From a virus (lineage: Duplodnaviria > Caudoviricetes), in IMG/VR virus record IMGVR_UViG_3300014204_000015, positions 1-64,000 of that record: 64,000 bases of DNA, one strand, 5' to 3'. Both the position numbers and the translations under genes were made by a program. Shown one piece after another: positions 31,154-36,261 of this stretch; within the stretch, counting starts at the first letter, position 1, and every line of letters begins with the position of its first letter. The notes below the pieces were generated by a model. It had not been told where the DNA came from, ran no database searches, and saw nothing but the letters and a program-made list of their open reading frames with translations.

Positions 31154-31972
31154 CTACACACCTCCCTTCACGTTCTGAAGCCCCCGAAGCACCGCCCTAG
31201 TAACCGGGCAGCCTTCGTAGCGGCGCAATCCTAGGCCTATCTCGTGCGTATCCTTGCCGAGAGGGTAGTGCCCCCCTAGGTGAGACTTCCACTTGCAGAA
31301 TATCGTCTCCGTCTCTTGGACATTCAGAGGCCGGTCATAGAGCGGGGGAGCCCGCCGCTTACCCATCGCCCGAAGAACGAATTGGTGGGCTAACGTCATA
31401 CGGTTTAGGGGTGACTCGATGAAGGGTATGAGCCGATATTGTTCGCAAGTAGCCATAGCCCCTTTCTTGGAGCTATCGAACATATGTACCAGCTCATCTT
31501 CGGTGAACTCGACGAAGGCTATCCCTAGCCGGTCAATCATATCGGGCACTTTCCACTTGACCCATTCCCCGAAGCCGTAGAGGTTCTTCACTCTAGCCAT
31601 CATAACCGCAGCCGTCGGCTTACCATCCAAGAGGTAATCCATCAACTGAGTAGGCTCGGGAAAGGTAGCCCGCAACCGTCGAATCGACTCGATGGCTAGG
31701 GCCCCTCGGAAGTGCCGACGTTCTGTCCCTCGGGGGTAGTCAGTACCGCCTAGGGCTATGGTAGTCATCGTGGACCAGAACTTCTTCGGGCCCTTACCCA
31801 CTATCCAACAAGCTAGTCCTGCGTGGTAGTAGCACCAATAGGCTATCAGCCAACGGATAAGGGTAGGCCGGTCCATACCCGAATGAAGCAGGGCTACGTA
31901 CAACGGGTCAAGGTCTTCAGAGTCAAGTAGCTTCCGCCCAAACTCGACAATACCCATCGGTTCAAATACCAC
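31154..31972 (-). CDS. Amino acid:DNA transferase (aGPT-Pplase2 type, HhH glycosylase fold)
   Basis: DLDP.Y..L, RWL.AYW..YH.G, PRG.ERRHFRG, GFGEW..WK..DM, ET..CKWKSH motifs. Confidence 0.8.
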   Translation of the reverse strand: MVFEPMGIVEFGRKLLDSEDLDPLYVALLHSGMDRPTLIRWLIAYWCYYHAGLACWIVGKGPKKFWSTMTTIALGGTDYPRGTERRHFRGALAIESIRRLRATFPEPTQLMDYLLDGKPTAAVMMARVKNLYGFGEWVKWKVPDMIDRLGIAFVEFTEDELVHMFDSSKKGAMATCEQYRLIPFIESPLNRMTLAHQFVLRAMGKRRAPPLYDRPLNVQETETIFCKWKSHLGGHYPLGKDTHEIGLGLRRYEGCPVTRAVLRGLQNVKGGV

Positions 31973-34286
31973 GGAACATCTCCTTGCGGAAGTCGGCCAT
32001 GGTGAGGGCTCGGGCCTCTCCCGCGAGAGTATCCCCGCAGCGTGGCTGCCCGCCGTTCTCTGACGCGCAATAGAGGCATCCTGACGGTGGGCAAGAGGAT
32101 AGGGGCCTGAACCGTTTACCGGAGCGTATGTACACCGGGACGGCGTGCCCGTGGCATTGAGCGGAGGTCGTAACCTCCCGGCCGATACTCACACCGGTTT
32201 TGTCGATGATCTCCCCGGCTTCGTTTCGCTCATAACGGTACTCATAACAGACCGAGTAGGTCAAGCCTAGCCGCTTGGCTTCGGCTGCGTAGAGGTCGTG
32301 AGCCTGTAGCCGGTACTCCTCCACGATGGTTCGTTGTCCACCAATGTTTTCCTGGAAGAGAGAAGCGAAGGCCAAGCCACGATCACCGAACCGCTTGATC
32401 ATTCTCTCGACCATCGCGGGGGCCCAAGAGTAACCGGCCTCAACAAACTTCACGATGACGTGGTCGGCTCCAGCCTTCCGTAGCCGTCGGAACAACTCGA
32501 TGATCTGCTCGTTGCTGGTTACCCCTGCGACAACCGGATTGACTTGGATTGAGACGTAGATGCCATGCTTCTTGAGCCGTCGAATATCTGCGAAGTGACC
32601 TTCCAAGTCCATCGCCCCGGGGGATAGCTTCTGCCAATCCTCCTGCGACGGTGTGTTGATAGACTTCTGCGCGTAGCTATGGGGGTTCTTCTTCAAGAGG
32701 TCGATAGCCCAAGCAGGGTATTTCAACCGGCTGAGGAAGAAGATAGGCAACCCAACCTCAACGCACGCCTCCGCAGCCGACTGGCTATTGTGATAAATCT
32801 CCTCCAGGGGCAAGAATGGGTCCGTGAATGATGAGAAGTAGACCGCCGCCCCTCGCTGGACCGTAGCCAACATCCCTCGCACCTGCTCCCCGTAATTCAT
32901 CGGGACGGTAATGAGGCCAGTCCCACGGTACCCGCGAAACCCCGAGTTCACGTAGCAATTGTGGACTAAGATACCTTGATGGTAGAAATTACCCGTTTCC
33001 GTTTCGATGTCGTAGACCCGAACTTTGCCTTGAACTCGGGTGATTTTCTCGACATAAGGATACCTAATCTTTCTAGGGTCTTTTGATCGAATACGATTAT
33101 TCGATAGCCTAAACTCCTGGCCAGTCGAATTTTCTCGCGGTCTGCTTCGGAAAAATACCCCTTGACTTCTACGTAAGCCCCGTGGGGTTGTAGTTTGAAA
33201 TCTGGTAAGTAGGCCGAACCATTCGGCAACGAAATAGCCAAGGGCTCGTAATCCCAATCGTACCCAGCTTTCTCGAAGTATTGGGCTGTCAATACTTCCC
33301 AAGTTGACCTCATGCGAAATGTTCGGCCCTTGCGGTCGGTGAAAGCTTGACGCTTGGATAGTCGAAACCCCGATATCCCGTTGCGGACAGCTTCGGCTCT
33401 TGCCAATCGAAAAGCCGGCGATTTCGGACCCTTGGCCCGCTGAGACATACTGTCTCGATGGGCTAGGGCGTGAGCACTCATCCTGGCCCGCGTCACCGCC
33501 GATTTGGGTTTGCCTTTGAGAACTGAAGATTTTCCCCGACATAATTTGCCGTTCGCAGACCGTACTTTCAGCAAGCAAGAGTCGCACACTAGCCGATTCT
33601 GAGGGATTGTGTTTTGGCAATCTCGACATTGAGGCATCTTCTAACTCCTCGCCATATTGTAAACTTTCAGCCGAAACCCAGCCCCGGCTTCTTGAATATA
33701 CTGGGTGATCTCCCGTCATTTGTAACTCTCGGCCGTCGGATAAGGTAATGACTACTAGTCCTTCAGGTTTCCAGTGACTACTAGTACCTAATACCCTAAC
33801 CGCTCTTCTATCTTCAATGGTACGTCCGTAGACCCAATCACCTACCTGAAATTGATCAATAGGCTTTGGTCCACTAGGGGTATCTACCATCCCCCCTTTT
33901 GGCAAAGAAAAGGCGCAGCCAACCATACACCAGCCACCGTAAGGCTCAGTCAATATCGCTTCGGTGAAACAGGGACGGGGCCGTGTACCCTTCGGCTCGT
34001 GGAGGCCTTTGTACCAACCCTGAAGTGGCTTGGCCTTCTCGATGCGCGTATGCGGGTAGGGCTCCAGGTAGGCCTTGACAACCTTGCGGTTCTCCTCCTT
34101 GGCGTTACGGGTCATCCCAATCTTGAGGCTACGCACCTTCACCTTCCGGCCAAACACCTCATCGTACTCTAGCCGAATTGGGCCGAGATTCTCGCGGGGC
34201 TCGGGCCGCATGAAGAAATTATAGTTGGTAGCCGCTGTGTTGTCGTCGTCTCCGACGGTCTGAATCGTAATCCAACTCTGAGACAT
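31962..34286 (-). CDS. Radical SAM enzyme (putative glycinyl-T isomerase) interrupted by an intein
   Basis: After splicing CMVGCAF+CY gives CxxxCxxC; YFSSFTDPF; AGGAGG RBS before ATG 34286. Confidence 0.8.
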   Translation of the reverse strand: MSQSWITIQTVGDDDNTAATNYNFFMRPEPRENLGPIRLEYDEVFGRKVKVRSLKIGMTRNAKEENRKVVKAYLEPYPHTRIEKAKPLQGWYKGLHEPKGTRPRPCFTEAILTEPYGGWCMVGCAFSLPKGGMVDTPSGPKPIDQFQVGDWVYGRTIEDRRAVRVLGTSSHWKPEGLVVITLSDGRELQMTGDHPVYSRSRGWVSAESLQYGEELEDASMSRLPKHNPSESASVRLLLAESTVCERQIMSGKIFSSQRQTQIGGDAGQDECSRPSPSRQYVSAGQGSEIAGFSIGKSRSCPQRDIGVSTIQASSFHRPQGPNISHEVNLGSIDSPILRESWVRLGLRALGYFVAEWFGLLTRFQTTTPRGLRRSQGVFFRSRPRENSTGQEFRLSNNRIRSKDPRKIRYPYVEKITRVQGKVRVYDIETETGNFYHQGILVHNCYVNSGFRGYRGTGLITVPMNYGEQVRGMLATVQRGAAVYFSSFTDPFLPLEEIYHNSQSAAEACVEVGLPIFFLSRLKYPAWAIDLLKKNPHSYAQKSINTPSQEDWQKLSPGAMDLEGHFADIRRLKKHGIYVSIQVNPVVAGVTSNEQIIELFRRLRKAGADHVIVKFVEAGYSWAPAMVERMIKRFGDRGLAFASLFQENIGGQRTIVEEYRLQAHDLYAAEAKRLGLTYSVCYEYRYERNEAGEIIDKTGVSIGREVTTSAQCHGHAVPVYIRSGKRFRPLSSCPPSGCLYCASENGGQPRCGDTLAGEARALTMADFRKEMFRGI
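32958..33908 (-). mobile_element. Intein (317 aa, Ser1...His-Asn, +1 Cys) in the radical SAM gene
   Basis: SLPKG..VDTPSG.KPI....VGD.V (block A), T.DHP (block B), VYDIETETGNFY..GILVHN|C (blocks F/G). Confidence 0.9.
32966..33637 (-). CDS. PD-(D/E)XK endonuclease nested out of frame inside the intein
   Basis: Own AGGAG RBS and ATG; CxxC..CxxC, NUMOD-like KGKPKS..TR..MS, RS.WE...YEP...YLPDF...VEVKG. Confidence 0.85.
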   Translation of the reverse strand: MPQCRDCQNTIPQNRLVCDSCLLKVRSANGKLCRGKSSVLKGKPKSAVTRARMSAHALAHRDSMSQRAKGPKSPAFRLARAEAVRNGISGFRLSKRQAFTDRKGRTFRMRSTWEVLTAQYFEKAGYDWDYEPLAISLPNGSAYLPDFKLQPHGAYVEVKGYFSEADREKIRLARSLGYRIIVFDQKTLERLGILMSRKSPEFKAKFGSTTSKRKRVISTIKVS

Positions 34287-34294
34287 AGCACCTC

Positions 34295-34831
34295 CTACGC
34301 GTGCAGCTGTAGTAACTTGAGAATAGTCCCGGGAGCCTGACGGGCACTTACCCGTCGGCAATCGACTCCCAGAGCTAACAATTTTACCCGCGAACGCTCG
34401 ATGACCGCTACCCGGTTCCGAGTATTCGCTTCATTGAGGGGCTTTTCGTTGCCGGCTTCCTCCCGACGTTTCTTGATCTGAGCAATACACTGCTCGACGG
34501 GCGTAGTCAAGTACAGTACGTGAACGTCGTCCAACTGGGAGGTCCACTTCACATCTTCGGAGAGCAGTAGCCCTTCGCAGAGGATATGAGAGCATTGAGG
34601 CAATACCATTTGGATTACCTCAAAGACCTGACGAGCACTACCGATGTTATCACATCCTCCACAGGTAGCCTCATAGTGACCTAGAACAGTTGTCATCCCG
34701 TAGTGATACCATAATGGATTCTTCCTACCTCGGGTGAAAACCTCTAGGGTACGTTCTCCCAGGGCCCTCATCACCTCCCGCATCACCCAGGTCTTACCTG
34801 AGCCGCTGGTTCCGCGTACTTGGACAATCAT
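34295..34831 (-). CDS. P-loop kinase of the hypermodification cluster (nucleotide kinase or DNA-kinase partner)
   Basis: VRGTSGSGKT, ILCEG, C...IKKRR; GGAGG RBS before ATG 34831. Confidence 0.75.
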   Translation of the reverse strand: MIVQVRGTSGSGKTWVMREVMRALGERTLEVFTRGRKNPLWYHYGMTTVLGHYEATCGGCDNIGSARQVFEVIQMVLPQCSHILCEGLLLSEDVKWTSQLDDVHVLYLTTPVEQCIAQIKKRREEAGNEKPLNEANTRNRVAVIERSRVKLLALGVDCRRVSARQAPGTILKLLQLHA

Positions 34832-34848: not shown

Positions 34849-35087
34849 GGTGGAGAGTCGGCATACTCGTTCTCGGTTACAACATGACGGTCGCCAGCTC
34901 TCCGCCATCATTTCTAGTAAAGGTGGAGGACGGCATACCCCTAATCGGTTACATTTGGGCATTCGCCGGTCCTCCACTATTGTATTAAGCTATCCATTCC
35001 CGGGGTCGGTTACAAGGAAAGAATCAGATAGCTATTGATTTGGGCCTAGTAAATTCATACTCGGTTACATGCGGGTTCTCACTAGGC
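34849..35087 (-). ncRNA. Dual-spacer stem-loop guide array, four units (TIGR-like), downstream of the tas-like gene
   Basis: TGTAACCGA at plus-strand 34873, 34945, 35006, 35061; each flanked by two 9-nt variable segments and closed by a unit-specific inverted repeat. Confidence 0.85.
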
Positions 35088-36020
35088 TTTGTACGGTTGG
35101 AATGGAGTATTAGTCCATTCGAGCCAGAGGTTCTTGAGGATTAACTTGGTAGCGAGCAACATCCCATGCTTGTGGGCGTGGCCGCATTTCTCCCCGATAC
35201 CTCCGCACGTTAGGCATTTCTTCTTGGCATGGTTCTTACCCTTACATTTGTCGCAGGGCTTCCACTCCCACTCTGGGTGAGTCTGCCGGGCTCGAATCTT
35301 CGCTTCAAGCCAACGGCTACGGTAGATGCCAGAACCGTTCTGCTTGATAAGGTTCTCCCCGATGATGTAGGACACGCTACGTCGGCGGGGAGGATAACCA
35401 AAGTTGGTCCAATCTTCGGCCGTTAGCTTCTGGAGGCCCTTCTTGTTACCTGCTCGGCTTTTCCAAGAGGCCCCCATCAGGGTTTCCTCCCCCTTCGTAA
35501 ATGGAGCACACCCTAGCCGTTTCCAAACCTTCGCGGGATTGGGGTAGTTATTCAAGTCACCCGTCTCCCCAATAATGACGGCTAGGGACATCAGGCCGAA
35601 TCCGGCTTGATTGGGCTCAGCTACCCAAGAGGCCACCGGAAGAGTCTTGACCAGGGCTAGCATTTCCTTCTCAAAGATATCCTGTTGGGTATCGTAGCCA
35701 TCGACGGCTATGTTAGTCGTGAGGATGATGCTTCGTAGAGGATGCTGTTCCCCGTCAATAACCCCCTTAATTATTCCGGTGGCCTCCTTGAACAGCTTGA
35801 GGCGGTCTGCCTCCTTGAGCCCGCTACTATAGCCGAGAGTCCCAGCCACGGTAGCTTGGAGCCGATTGGCTATCATGATTCGGCTCTTGATGACCCACGC
35901 CCTCTGCCGTTGGAGGGCTTGTAGTTCCGCCGACACCTCAGCTACGTTACATTCGCTCCTTCGGTTACAATATGGAACTCGTTTAGCTGAGGATGTCGGC
36001 TTCTGTTTCTTCTTAGCCAT
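35082..36020 (-). CDS. IS110/Nop-domain protein lacking the RuvC domain (TasA-like RNA-guided DNA-binding protein)
   Basis: GFGLMSLAVIIGETGDLNNY.NPAKVWKRLG.AP, GY..RRRS...IGE.LIK, HAH...L..K.IL..LW..W; no N-terminal DEDD; flanked by guide-like arrays. Confidence 0.75.
   Translation of the reverse strand: MAKKKQKPTSSAKRVPYCNRRSECNVAEVSAELQALQRQRAWVIKSRIMIANRLQATVAGTLGYSSGLKEADRLKLFKEATGIIKGVIDGEQHPLRSIILTTNIAVDGYDTQQDIFEKEMLALVKTLPVASWVAEPNQAGFGLMSLAVIIGETGDLNNYPNPAKVWKRLGCAPFTKGEETLMGASWKSRAGNKKGLQKLTAEDWTNFGYPPRRRSVSYIIGENLIKQNGSGIYRSRWLEAKIRARQTHPEWEWKPCDKCKGKNHAKKKCLTCGGIGEKCGHAHKHGMLLATKLILKNLWLEWTNTPFQPYKA
35938..35990 (-). ncRNA. Single dual-spacer stem-loop unit inside the 5' end of the tas-like ORF
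   Basis: TCAGCTA..CGA-GTTCCATAT-TGTAACCGA-AGGAGCGAA-TG..TAGCTGA. Confidence 0.7.
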
Positions 36021-36041
36021 TTGACTCTCCTAGTTAGAAAA

Positions 36042-36252
36042 TACTAGCAGTACCTCGATCGGTTACAAAGACCTTATCGCTAGTAGTTGTTTTGGGCTAC
36101 CCAACGTTCTATTCGGTTACACGCAGTTTATCAGGTAGCAGTAGTTTGATGCGCCACGGGCATCCTCGGTTGCAAGACGATATTCGGCGCATGATGTTTT
36201 GAAAGCCTACCCAATGCCCATGATCGGTTACACCTCTTCGCTCAGGTAGGCT
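36042..36252 (-). ncRNA. Dual-spacer stem-loop guide array, four units (TIGR-like), upstream of the tas-like gene
   Basis: Loop repeat at plus-strand 36059, 36113, 36166 (TGCAACCGA variant), 36224; stems TACTAGC, GCTACC, ATGCGCC, AGCCTACC. Confidence 0.85.
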
Positions 36253-36261
36253 AATGGATTG

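Follow-up and report, generated by a model that had tools for sequence, protein, structure and literature searches.

Several systems in which a homing nuclease overlaps its host gene in a different reading frame have been described. In the cyanobacterial dnaX intein, which was analysed by Phillips, DeSimone & Gogarten (2026; bioRxiv 10.64898/2026.09.14.751524), a LAGLIDADG nuclease is encoded out of frame, an arrangement that later work credits to a first proposal by Gorbalenya in 1998, and its origin was proposed to be the secondary invasion of a mini-intein. In the phage inteins reported by Gosselin (2025) the nuclease is a separate overlapping open reading frame (ORF), for which an origin from a free-standing nuclease gene was proposed. 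Here we analysed an intein of this general kind in a 64,000-nucleotide (nt) stretch of viral DNA, referred to below as the window, which covers positions 1 to 64,000 of the IMG/VR record IMGVR_UViG_3300014204_000015. The record is the 73,385-bp genome of an uncultured phage and has direct terminal repeats. The intein interrupts a gene for a radical S-adenosylmethionine (radical-SAM) enzyme, and a nuclease of the T7 endonuclease I type is encoded within it in the +1 frame. An original prediction, made from this DNA alone, had assumed that such a layout was unprecedented, which was mistaken, since out-of-frame intein nucleases had already been published. The general layout is thus known (1998, 2025-2026 preprints), and the present case is a refinement and not a surprise. 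What is new is the nuclease family in the overprinted configuration, the host gene, the presence of two insertion sites, and the free-standing nuclease siblings beside empty alleles.

The locus shares with the dnaX intein a pair of HINT splicing halves around a disordered in-frame middle, as well as a nuclease that has its own Shine-Dalgarno sequence and is read in a different frame on that strand. Both also combine a low ratio of nonsynonymous to synonymous change (omega) in the nuclease frame with a relaxed host frame, and in both mini-inteins and empty alleles coexist. However, the dnaX nuclease is a LAGLIDADG protein in a bacterial replication gene, whereas here a zinc ribbon and a PD-(D/E)XK domain of the T7 endonuclease I type lie in a radical-SAM gene for phage DNA modification. 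Free-standing siblings of the nuclease stand beside empty alleles in the present case, whereas the dnaX paper could not identify the source of its nuclease. The phage inteins of Gosselin (2025) likewise have an in-frame middle without recognisable structure, but their nucleases belong to other families and their hosts are genes for DNA polymerase, minor capsid protein, terminase, and thymidylate synthase. Set against those inteins, the tail of the nuclease ORF described here crosses splicing blocks F and G, and in two relatives it runs past the end of the intein.

Two further systems are similar in part. In the fractured genes of Dassa et al. (2009, PMC2677866), a free-standing-type nuclease gene with a restriction-endonuclease fold (Vsr-like in that case) also occupies the endonuclease insertion point and is flanked by split intein halves; host and intein are there broken into two genes and joined by trans-splicing, whereas the host frame is unbroken here and the intein acts in cis. 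The out-of-frame HNH insertion in the methylase of phage ShiLan (Arsenault et al., 2025, PMC11855218) is also a nuclease ORF inside a host gene whose frame remains open, but it lacks a splicing domain and is retained as a loop of the host protein, while clear HINT halves are present here. Published lists of intein nucleases comprise LAGLIDADG, HNH, GIY-YIG, VSR-like, and endonuclease-VII-like enzymes, and a T7-endonuclease-I-type PD-(D/E)XK protein was not found as an intein-associated homing enzyme in the literature searched.

The locus is, in our judgment, likely to be a non-canonical mobile intein, with a HINT domain in the iron-sulfur motif of the radical-SAM enzyme, a separate nuclease gene overprinted in the +1 frame, and homing into intein-less alleles. 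The intein comprises 317 codons on the complementary strand (33908..32958) and was recognised by the Pfam family Intein_splicing, by alignment, and by its predicted fold. It begins with Ser1 (TCT, 33908..33906), carries T65-x-x-H68 in block B and D300 in block F, and ends with H316-N317 in block G, after which Cys+1 follows. In an alignment of nine related inteins, T65, H68, D300, H316, and N317 were invariant. AlphaFold2 assigned to the intein frame a predicted local distance difference test (pLDDT) score of 86-95 at residues 1-96 and 281-317, and of about 30, without secondary structure, at residues 97-280. The N-terminal splicing half (residues 1-96, 33621..33908, pLDDT 86-95) aligned with the mini-intein of a related locus, L011, and the C-terminal half (residues 281-317, 32958..33068, pLDDT 86-94) contains blocks F and G and shares its DNA with the unstructured nuclease tail. 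The linker between them (residues 97-280, 33069..33620) is predicted to be disordered, and its DNA makes up the main part of the nuclease gene when read in the +1 frame. With the ordered part of the intein as the query, Foldseek returned a BIL domain (3e-6) and the gp41-1 intein (E 5e-6).

The position of the intein bears directly on whether it splices. The N-extein (33909..34286, complementary strand) ends in C-M-V-G-C-A-F, which supplies the first two Cys of the [4Fe-4S] motif CxxxCxxC, and the C-extein (31962..32957, same strand, stop codon included) begins with Cys+1, the third Cys of the motif. The insertion point thus falls between Phe and the last Cys, and the cluster-binding Cys triad is split in an otherwise well-conserved enzyme. 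Removal of the intein restores CxxxCxF followed directly by C, exactly the junction seen in the empty alleles L005, L007, and L008 and in the corresponding motif of phage M6 gp53. Since the insert, a class-1-type HINT intein (Ser1, Cys+1), divides an essential Cys triad of a conserved enzyme, it is predicted to be capable of splicing.

The nuclease ORF (33637..32966, complementary strand) encodes 223 residues in the +1 frame relative to the intein and has the character of a free-standing-type homing-endonuclease gene. A Shine-Dalgarno-like GAGGAG (33650..33645) stands 7 nt upstream of its ATG; in the intein frame the same nucleotides encode the conserved Glu-Glu of an E-E-L-E-D motif. The nuclease ORF closes within blocks F and G, with 8 nt left between its stop codon and the end of the intein. 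The protein matched phrog_945, annotated as endonuclease (E 8.6e-14), and 3134 homologs were found at E<=1e-3 among 1.84 billion cluster representatives, while a search of the phage's own genome found this one copy only. The original prediction had listed the open 317-codon intein frame at 32958-33908 with its nonsense-like middle, and a 223-residue PD-(D/E)XK ORF at 32966-33637 with an AGGAG-N7-ATG start, a stop 8 nt before the intein end, and an overlap with blocks F and G. Each of these features was confirmed, and the apparent nonsense coincides with residues 97-280, where the AlphaFold2 confidence is low.

The nuclease was modelled with a mean pLDDT of 88.6 and consists of two structured regions and a tail. 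Its catalytic domain (residues 97-190, 33068..33349, complementary strand, pLDDT 95-98) was assigned to the T7-endonuclease-I-type PD-(D/E)XK fold with E114, D146, E157, and K159, which were invariant among 48 relatives and aligned with the R-S-x-x-E, P-D-F, and E-x-K-G motifs of T7 endonuclease I. The family profile matched T7 endonuclease I (PDB 1m0d; E 2.6e-12), the catalytic motifs being in register, and 26 of the 48 relatives matched PF05367 at E<0.01. Comparison of the model by VIA-align gave TnsA (Z 8.0), I-Bth0305I (Z 6.6), Bax1 (6.2), and Vsr (6.0), all of them PD-(D/E)XK proteins and the second a homing enzyme; Foldseek found nothing for the model at E<=1e-3, its best value being 3.5e-3. 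These Foldseek E-values are weak, and the fold was assigned from VIA-align and the profile search. T7 endonuclease I (gp3; PF05367; PDB 1m0d, 1fzr, 2pfj) has a matching catalytic core and matching E/D/E/K residues, but that enzyme lacks the N-terminal zinc-ribbon and helical arm and is not nested in another gene. T7 endonuclease I has about 149 residues.

The N-terminal arm of the nuclease (residues 1-96, 33350..33637, complementary strand) contains a four-Cys zinc ribbon (DZR_2, E 0.012) and helices at residues 19-33, 47-68, and 74-85, and judging from its sequence and model it is probably the DNA-recognition part. NUMOD3, a DNA-binding module of homing nucleases, was matched by 21 of the 48 relatives, with the protein of the window below threshold. 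The C-terminal tail (residues about 191-223, pLDDT 68-72) overlaps blocks F and G. Relatives differ in where it stops, the extremes being 113 nt short of the intein end and 46 nt beyond it, and in a three-sequence comparison its variation was highest, or tied highest, at the second position of the nuclease codons, equivalent to the third position of the intein frame. The tail appears to be a functionless run-on.

The same arrangement was present in all nine long inteins, namely that of the window and those of eight further independent metagenomic assemblies from other samples, each of which combined a +1 nuclease with an open host frame. Six of the eight (L002, L004, L006, L012, L013, and L014) have the insertion site of the window, termed site a. 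In the remaining two, L009 (2855-3943) and L010 (1560-2639), a homologous intein lies seven codons upstream, before the first Cys of CxxxCxxC; these site-b inteins begin with Cys1 and not Ser1, and their nuclease ORFs stop 80-113 nt before the intein end. An SD-like GGAG was found 5-9 nt before the nuclease start codon in all nine sequences, the start codons being ATG in five, TTG in three, and GTG in one. In four of the nine a stop codon lies in the nuclease frame two codons upstream of the start, which excludes the ORF as a continuation of the N-terminal half. The gene calls of L002 (3343-5667) and L006 (2367-4730) consisted of the nuclease ORF and a C-terminal fragment of 343-356 residues, the N-terminal part being uncalled. 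A gene with a GIY-YIG domain (L009:1-571), located about 2 kb upstream of the site-b radical-SAM gene in the same hypermodification cluster, may also encode a homing-type nuclease.

An alternative explanation is that a sequencing or assembly frameshift had artificially joined or separated the two frames. The identical phase in the nine assemblies from different samples speaks against an artefact, as does a contig of the source run that spans the whole stretch with 0 differences at a depth of 14. Contigs from two other studies were identical to the window over 33205-33453, 33564-34288, and 33230-33517, and the intein frame is open without any correction. An error of this kind was rejected on the grounds of the shared phase and the identical independent contigs, and the chance that it explains the locus is negligible. 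Frameshift errors joining the frames, which the original prediction had named as grounds for abandoning it, were thus not found, and neither did any homolog contain a stop in the intein frame.

Selection was compared between the frames in 28 pairs from eight sequences, an earlier version of the comparison having used three. In its own frame the nuclease core was 49.5% identical, with a variability of 0.63 at the third codon position and 0.44 and 0.37 at positions 1 and 2. The same DNA read in the intein frame gave 24.8% identity (28 pairs), and the intein-frame identity within the linker ranged from 19 to 32% between relatives. In the splicing halves the intein frame was the conserved one, with 48% identity and a third-position variability of 0.72 in the N-terminal half, and 59% and 0.62 in the C-terminal half. 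Since the third position is the most variable one in each selected frame, selection changes phase on passing from the splicing halves into the nuclease core and back.

The openness of the intein frame was assessed by permuting synonymous codons within each nuclease ORF in 20,000 trials, with the protein and codon usage kept. No intein-frame stop was observed in the overlap of any of the nine sequences, compared with shuffle means of 6-13, and the probability of an open frame ranged from 0 to 4e-4. For the window, the shuffles had a mean of 10.5 intein-frame stops and 0 of 20,000 left the frame open, while the third frame of the same overlap contains 13 stops. Summed over the nine sequences, nuclease codons ending in T were never found before codons starting with AA, AG, or GA (0/579), compared with 343 of 1608 (21%) elsewhere. 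These comparisons indicate that the nuclease frame is under purifying selection for its protein and that, in the overlap, selection on the intein frame does no more than keep it free of stops. The comparison of selection in both frames proposed with the original prediction thus came out as a constrained nuclease frame and an intein frame merely kept open. The estimate (61/64)^223 offered for a chance ORF was arithmetically right but was applied to the wrong frame, because the nuclease ORF is established as real by its homologs and it is the open intein frame that needs explaining. With nine assemblies, frame-specific selection, and invariant E/D/E/K residues, the evidence supports the originally proposed dual-coded selfish element, whose nuclease would be a separate gene in the overlapping frame.

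These data also bear on the idea that the ORF is the pseudogene remnant of a former in-frame endonuclease, now decaying after displacement by two compensating indels. A precedent for the ancestral state would be P0058, a more distant relative of the nuclease, which carries Intein_splicing (296-427) and Phage_endo_I (476-549) on one polypeptide; among closer relatives, no in-frame fused form was found at E<=1e-5 in a word-indexed search of proteins of 392-2000 residues, which is weak evidence. Decay is at odds with the purifying selection in the nuclease frame across the nine sequences, with the invariant catalytic residues, conserved Shine-Dalgarno sequence and start, and lack of stops, and with the nuclease-frame stop two codons upstream of the start in four of the nine. 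A frameshifted pseudogene was rejected because of the frame-specific conservation and the invariant catalytic residues, and we consider decay very improbable.

Two further architectures were considered for the insert. A self-splicing intron is not favoured: no Rfam intron family was found at E<=1 over 32700-34200, where the sole row was a chance match to RNase MRP (12.7 bits). The strong avoidance of stops in the host frame argues for translation through the insert. A fractured gene with a split intein was rejected because the host frame is single and uninterrupted in all nine sequences.

The host gene (31962..34286, complementary strand) matched phrog_9252, annotated as DNA repair photolyase (E 1.3e-176), and its homologs include those of M6-like phages. 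The host ORF as extracted mechanically (31962..34361, complementary strand) stays open throughout the intein and starts with a TTG at 34361. The true start is likely to be the ATG at 34286, 8 nt past the stop of an upstream kinase gene, because both the homologs and an AGGAGG-N5-ATG arrangement point there. The C-extein was about 60% identical to radical-SAM enzymes of M6-like Pseudomonas phages and up to 75% identical to intein-less homologs of about 460 residues. Phage M6 gp53 acts in the 5-(2-aminoethyl)uridine pathway as the N-alpha-glycinyl-thymine isomerase and has the iron-sulfur motif CTVGCAFC (PMC8989533). By sequence comparison the host gene is a homolog of this radical-SAM isomerase gene. 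The neighbouring genes encode a P-loop kinase, an amino-acid:DNA transferase (ADDT), and a pyridoxal-phosphate (PLP) enzyme, and thus fit a thymidine-hypermodification cluster of the M6 type. Within positions 34849-36880, an ORF of 312 residues (35082..36020) had no Pfam match at E<=1e-3.

The location of the host gene within a DNA-hypermodification cluster is one of the observations that would suit a nuclease recruited for a phage function, such as junction resolution or degradation of unmodified DNA, and kept for that purpose and not for homing. The catalytic domain belongs to the resolvase family of T7 endonuclease I, and relatives are annotated as Holliday junction resolvases in phage records. 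However, 113 of the 120 best host homologs listed, mostly of about 460 residues, are empty alleles, so that any nuclease in those phages sits elsewhere. The intein-borne nuclease is also scattered on the extein tree like a mobile element, and the zinc-ribbon, NUMOD3, and helix-turn-helix arms that occur in the nuclease family are typical of site-specific homing enzymes. We therefore consider recruitment for a phage function improbable.

Several other allele states were recovered alongside the overprinted form. L005 is an uninterrupted allele of 461 residues with an identical protein junction, and a scan of viral contigs with the whole host protein returned this one empty locus only. L011 (P0235; 1260-1649) contains a mini-intein of 130 residues with Cys1 at site a, which aligns to both splicing halves and has no alternative ORF. 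Its extein is sister to that of L012, which carries a full Ser1 intein with nuclease, and the mini-intein may represent a separate lineage or the product of nuclease loss. Free-standing homologs of the nuclease were found in L007 (424-1092, 49% identity) and L008 (456-1118, 45% identity), each directly behind the gene for the PLP enzyme, with an empty radical-SAM allele about 1 kb downstream.

In the nuclease tree, the free-standing copies of L007 and L008 were placed beside the intein-borne copy of L002, and the site-b copies were sister to the remainder. The free-standing clade lay inside the site-a clade at a support of 94/89, with long branches and without an outgroup root. In the extein tree, L002 and L007 were sisters in a clade that also included L008 and L006. 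Taken together, these placements indicate that, within a single clade of phages, the nuclease has switched between standing alone and lying inside an intein, the nuclease tree allowing either direction. In an extein tree of 69 rows, the eleven intein-bearing rows require 9 gains or losses, compared with a shuffled mean of 10.4, at least 7 changes being imposed by the starred branches. L014 and the empty allele P0250 had nearly identical exteins. The scatter fits horizontal spread, repeated loss, or both.

Short contigs from two sequencing runs added further allele evidence. In run X3 (record 12, a soil metagenome), a 517-nt contig matched the C-extein up to 32957 (window 32921-32957) and then continued into the N-extein end G-G-W-C-A-V-G-C-S-F, as expected for an intein-less allele. 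The same run also contained contigs identical to the intein (33230-33517), and thus empty and occupied alleles co-occur in one sample, possibly in different phages. In run X8 (wastewater), which is labelled RNA-Seq but was rated as probably DNA, two 151-nt contigs were identical to the 5′ half of the nuclease gene only within window positions 33361-33643, the extein pieces were about 10% different, and the loose end beyond 33650 read as a diverged N-terminal half of the intein. These contigs, being short, hint only weakly at mosaic recombination around the nuclease gene.

The free-standing copies, their nesting beside the L002 nuclease while the L002 extein is sister to the L007 extein, and the restriction of identity to the nuclease segment in X8 are the observations that favour a selfish homing gene of the free-standing type for which the intein is a harmless landing pad. 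Such a nuclease would cut some other site nearby, for instance in an adjacent gene, and spread by co-conversion, so that it and the intein would not form a single functional unit. On the other hand, the nuclease is conserved to about the same degree as the splicing halves, and the occurrence of the same +1 phase with a homologous intein at two insertion sites suggests that the two travel jointly. A nuclease-less Ser1 intein was not found, the sole mini-intein found having Cys1. On balance, we consider the landing-pad explanation unlikely, although less so than recruitment for a phage function.

Under the preferred reading, a mobile intein with an overprinted nuclease, about 550 nt at the usual endonuclease insertion point would be read in two frames. 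Ribosomes in the host frame would read through the disordered linker of 184 residues and produce the full precursor, whose HINT halves would associate, splice, and rejoin CxxxCxF to C, restoring the Cys triad. Ribosomes starting at the internal Shine-Dalgarno sequence and ATG would produce the separate nuclease of 223 residues. Its most likely target is the intein-less form of the host gene in related phages that infect the same cell, where repair templated by the occupied allele would then transfer intein and nuclease as one piece. That the precursor splices, that translation starts internally, and that the empty allele is cleaved are predictions from the sequence, and homing is suggested indirectly by the scattered distribution of the intein and the presence of the putative DNA-binding arm.

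Several observations weigh against this reading. The intein scored 35.5 bits (E 1.1e-8) with Pfam Intein_splicing, just under the cut-off of 35.8, and the nuclease of the window alone scored 24.5 bits with Phage_endo_I, below the cut-off of 29.1. Four of the nine sequences start the nuclease with TTG or GTG and not ATG. Repeated loss would explain the scatter on the extein tree as well as repeated gain does. Moreover, the characterised T7 endonuclease I is a structure-specific junction resolvase and is not site-specific.

The finding adds a DNA-hypermodification enzyme to the genes invaded by inteins. It also implies that protein-based surveys undercount inteins of this type, because gene callers split or mis-call such genes. 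This phage group may conceivably preserve every stage of an intein gaining or losing its nuclease, from empty alleles and empty alleles with a free-standing sibling about 1 kb away to a mini-intein and overprinted forms at two sites, although we hold this only tentatively. The series of empty allele, free-standing neighbour, mini-intein, overprinted form, and two sites makes the model of a splicing domain that came first and captured its nuclease later directly testable. If the free-standing nuclease already cuts the site encoding CxxxCxxC, the system would be the intein counterpart of the collaborative homing proposed for mobile group I introns. Overprinting, as opposed to in-frame fusion or a split intein, would in that case be a stable final arrangement through which any free-standing nuclease could mobilise an intein with no fusion of domains.

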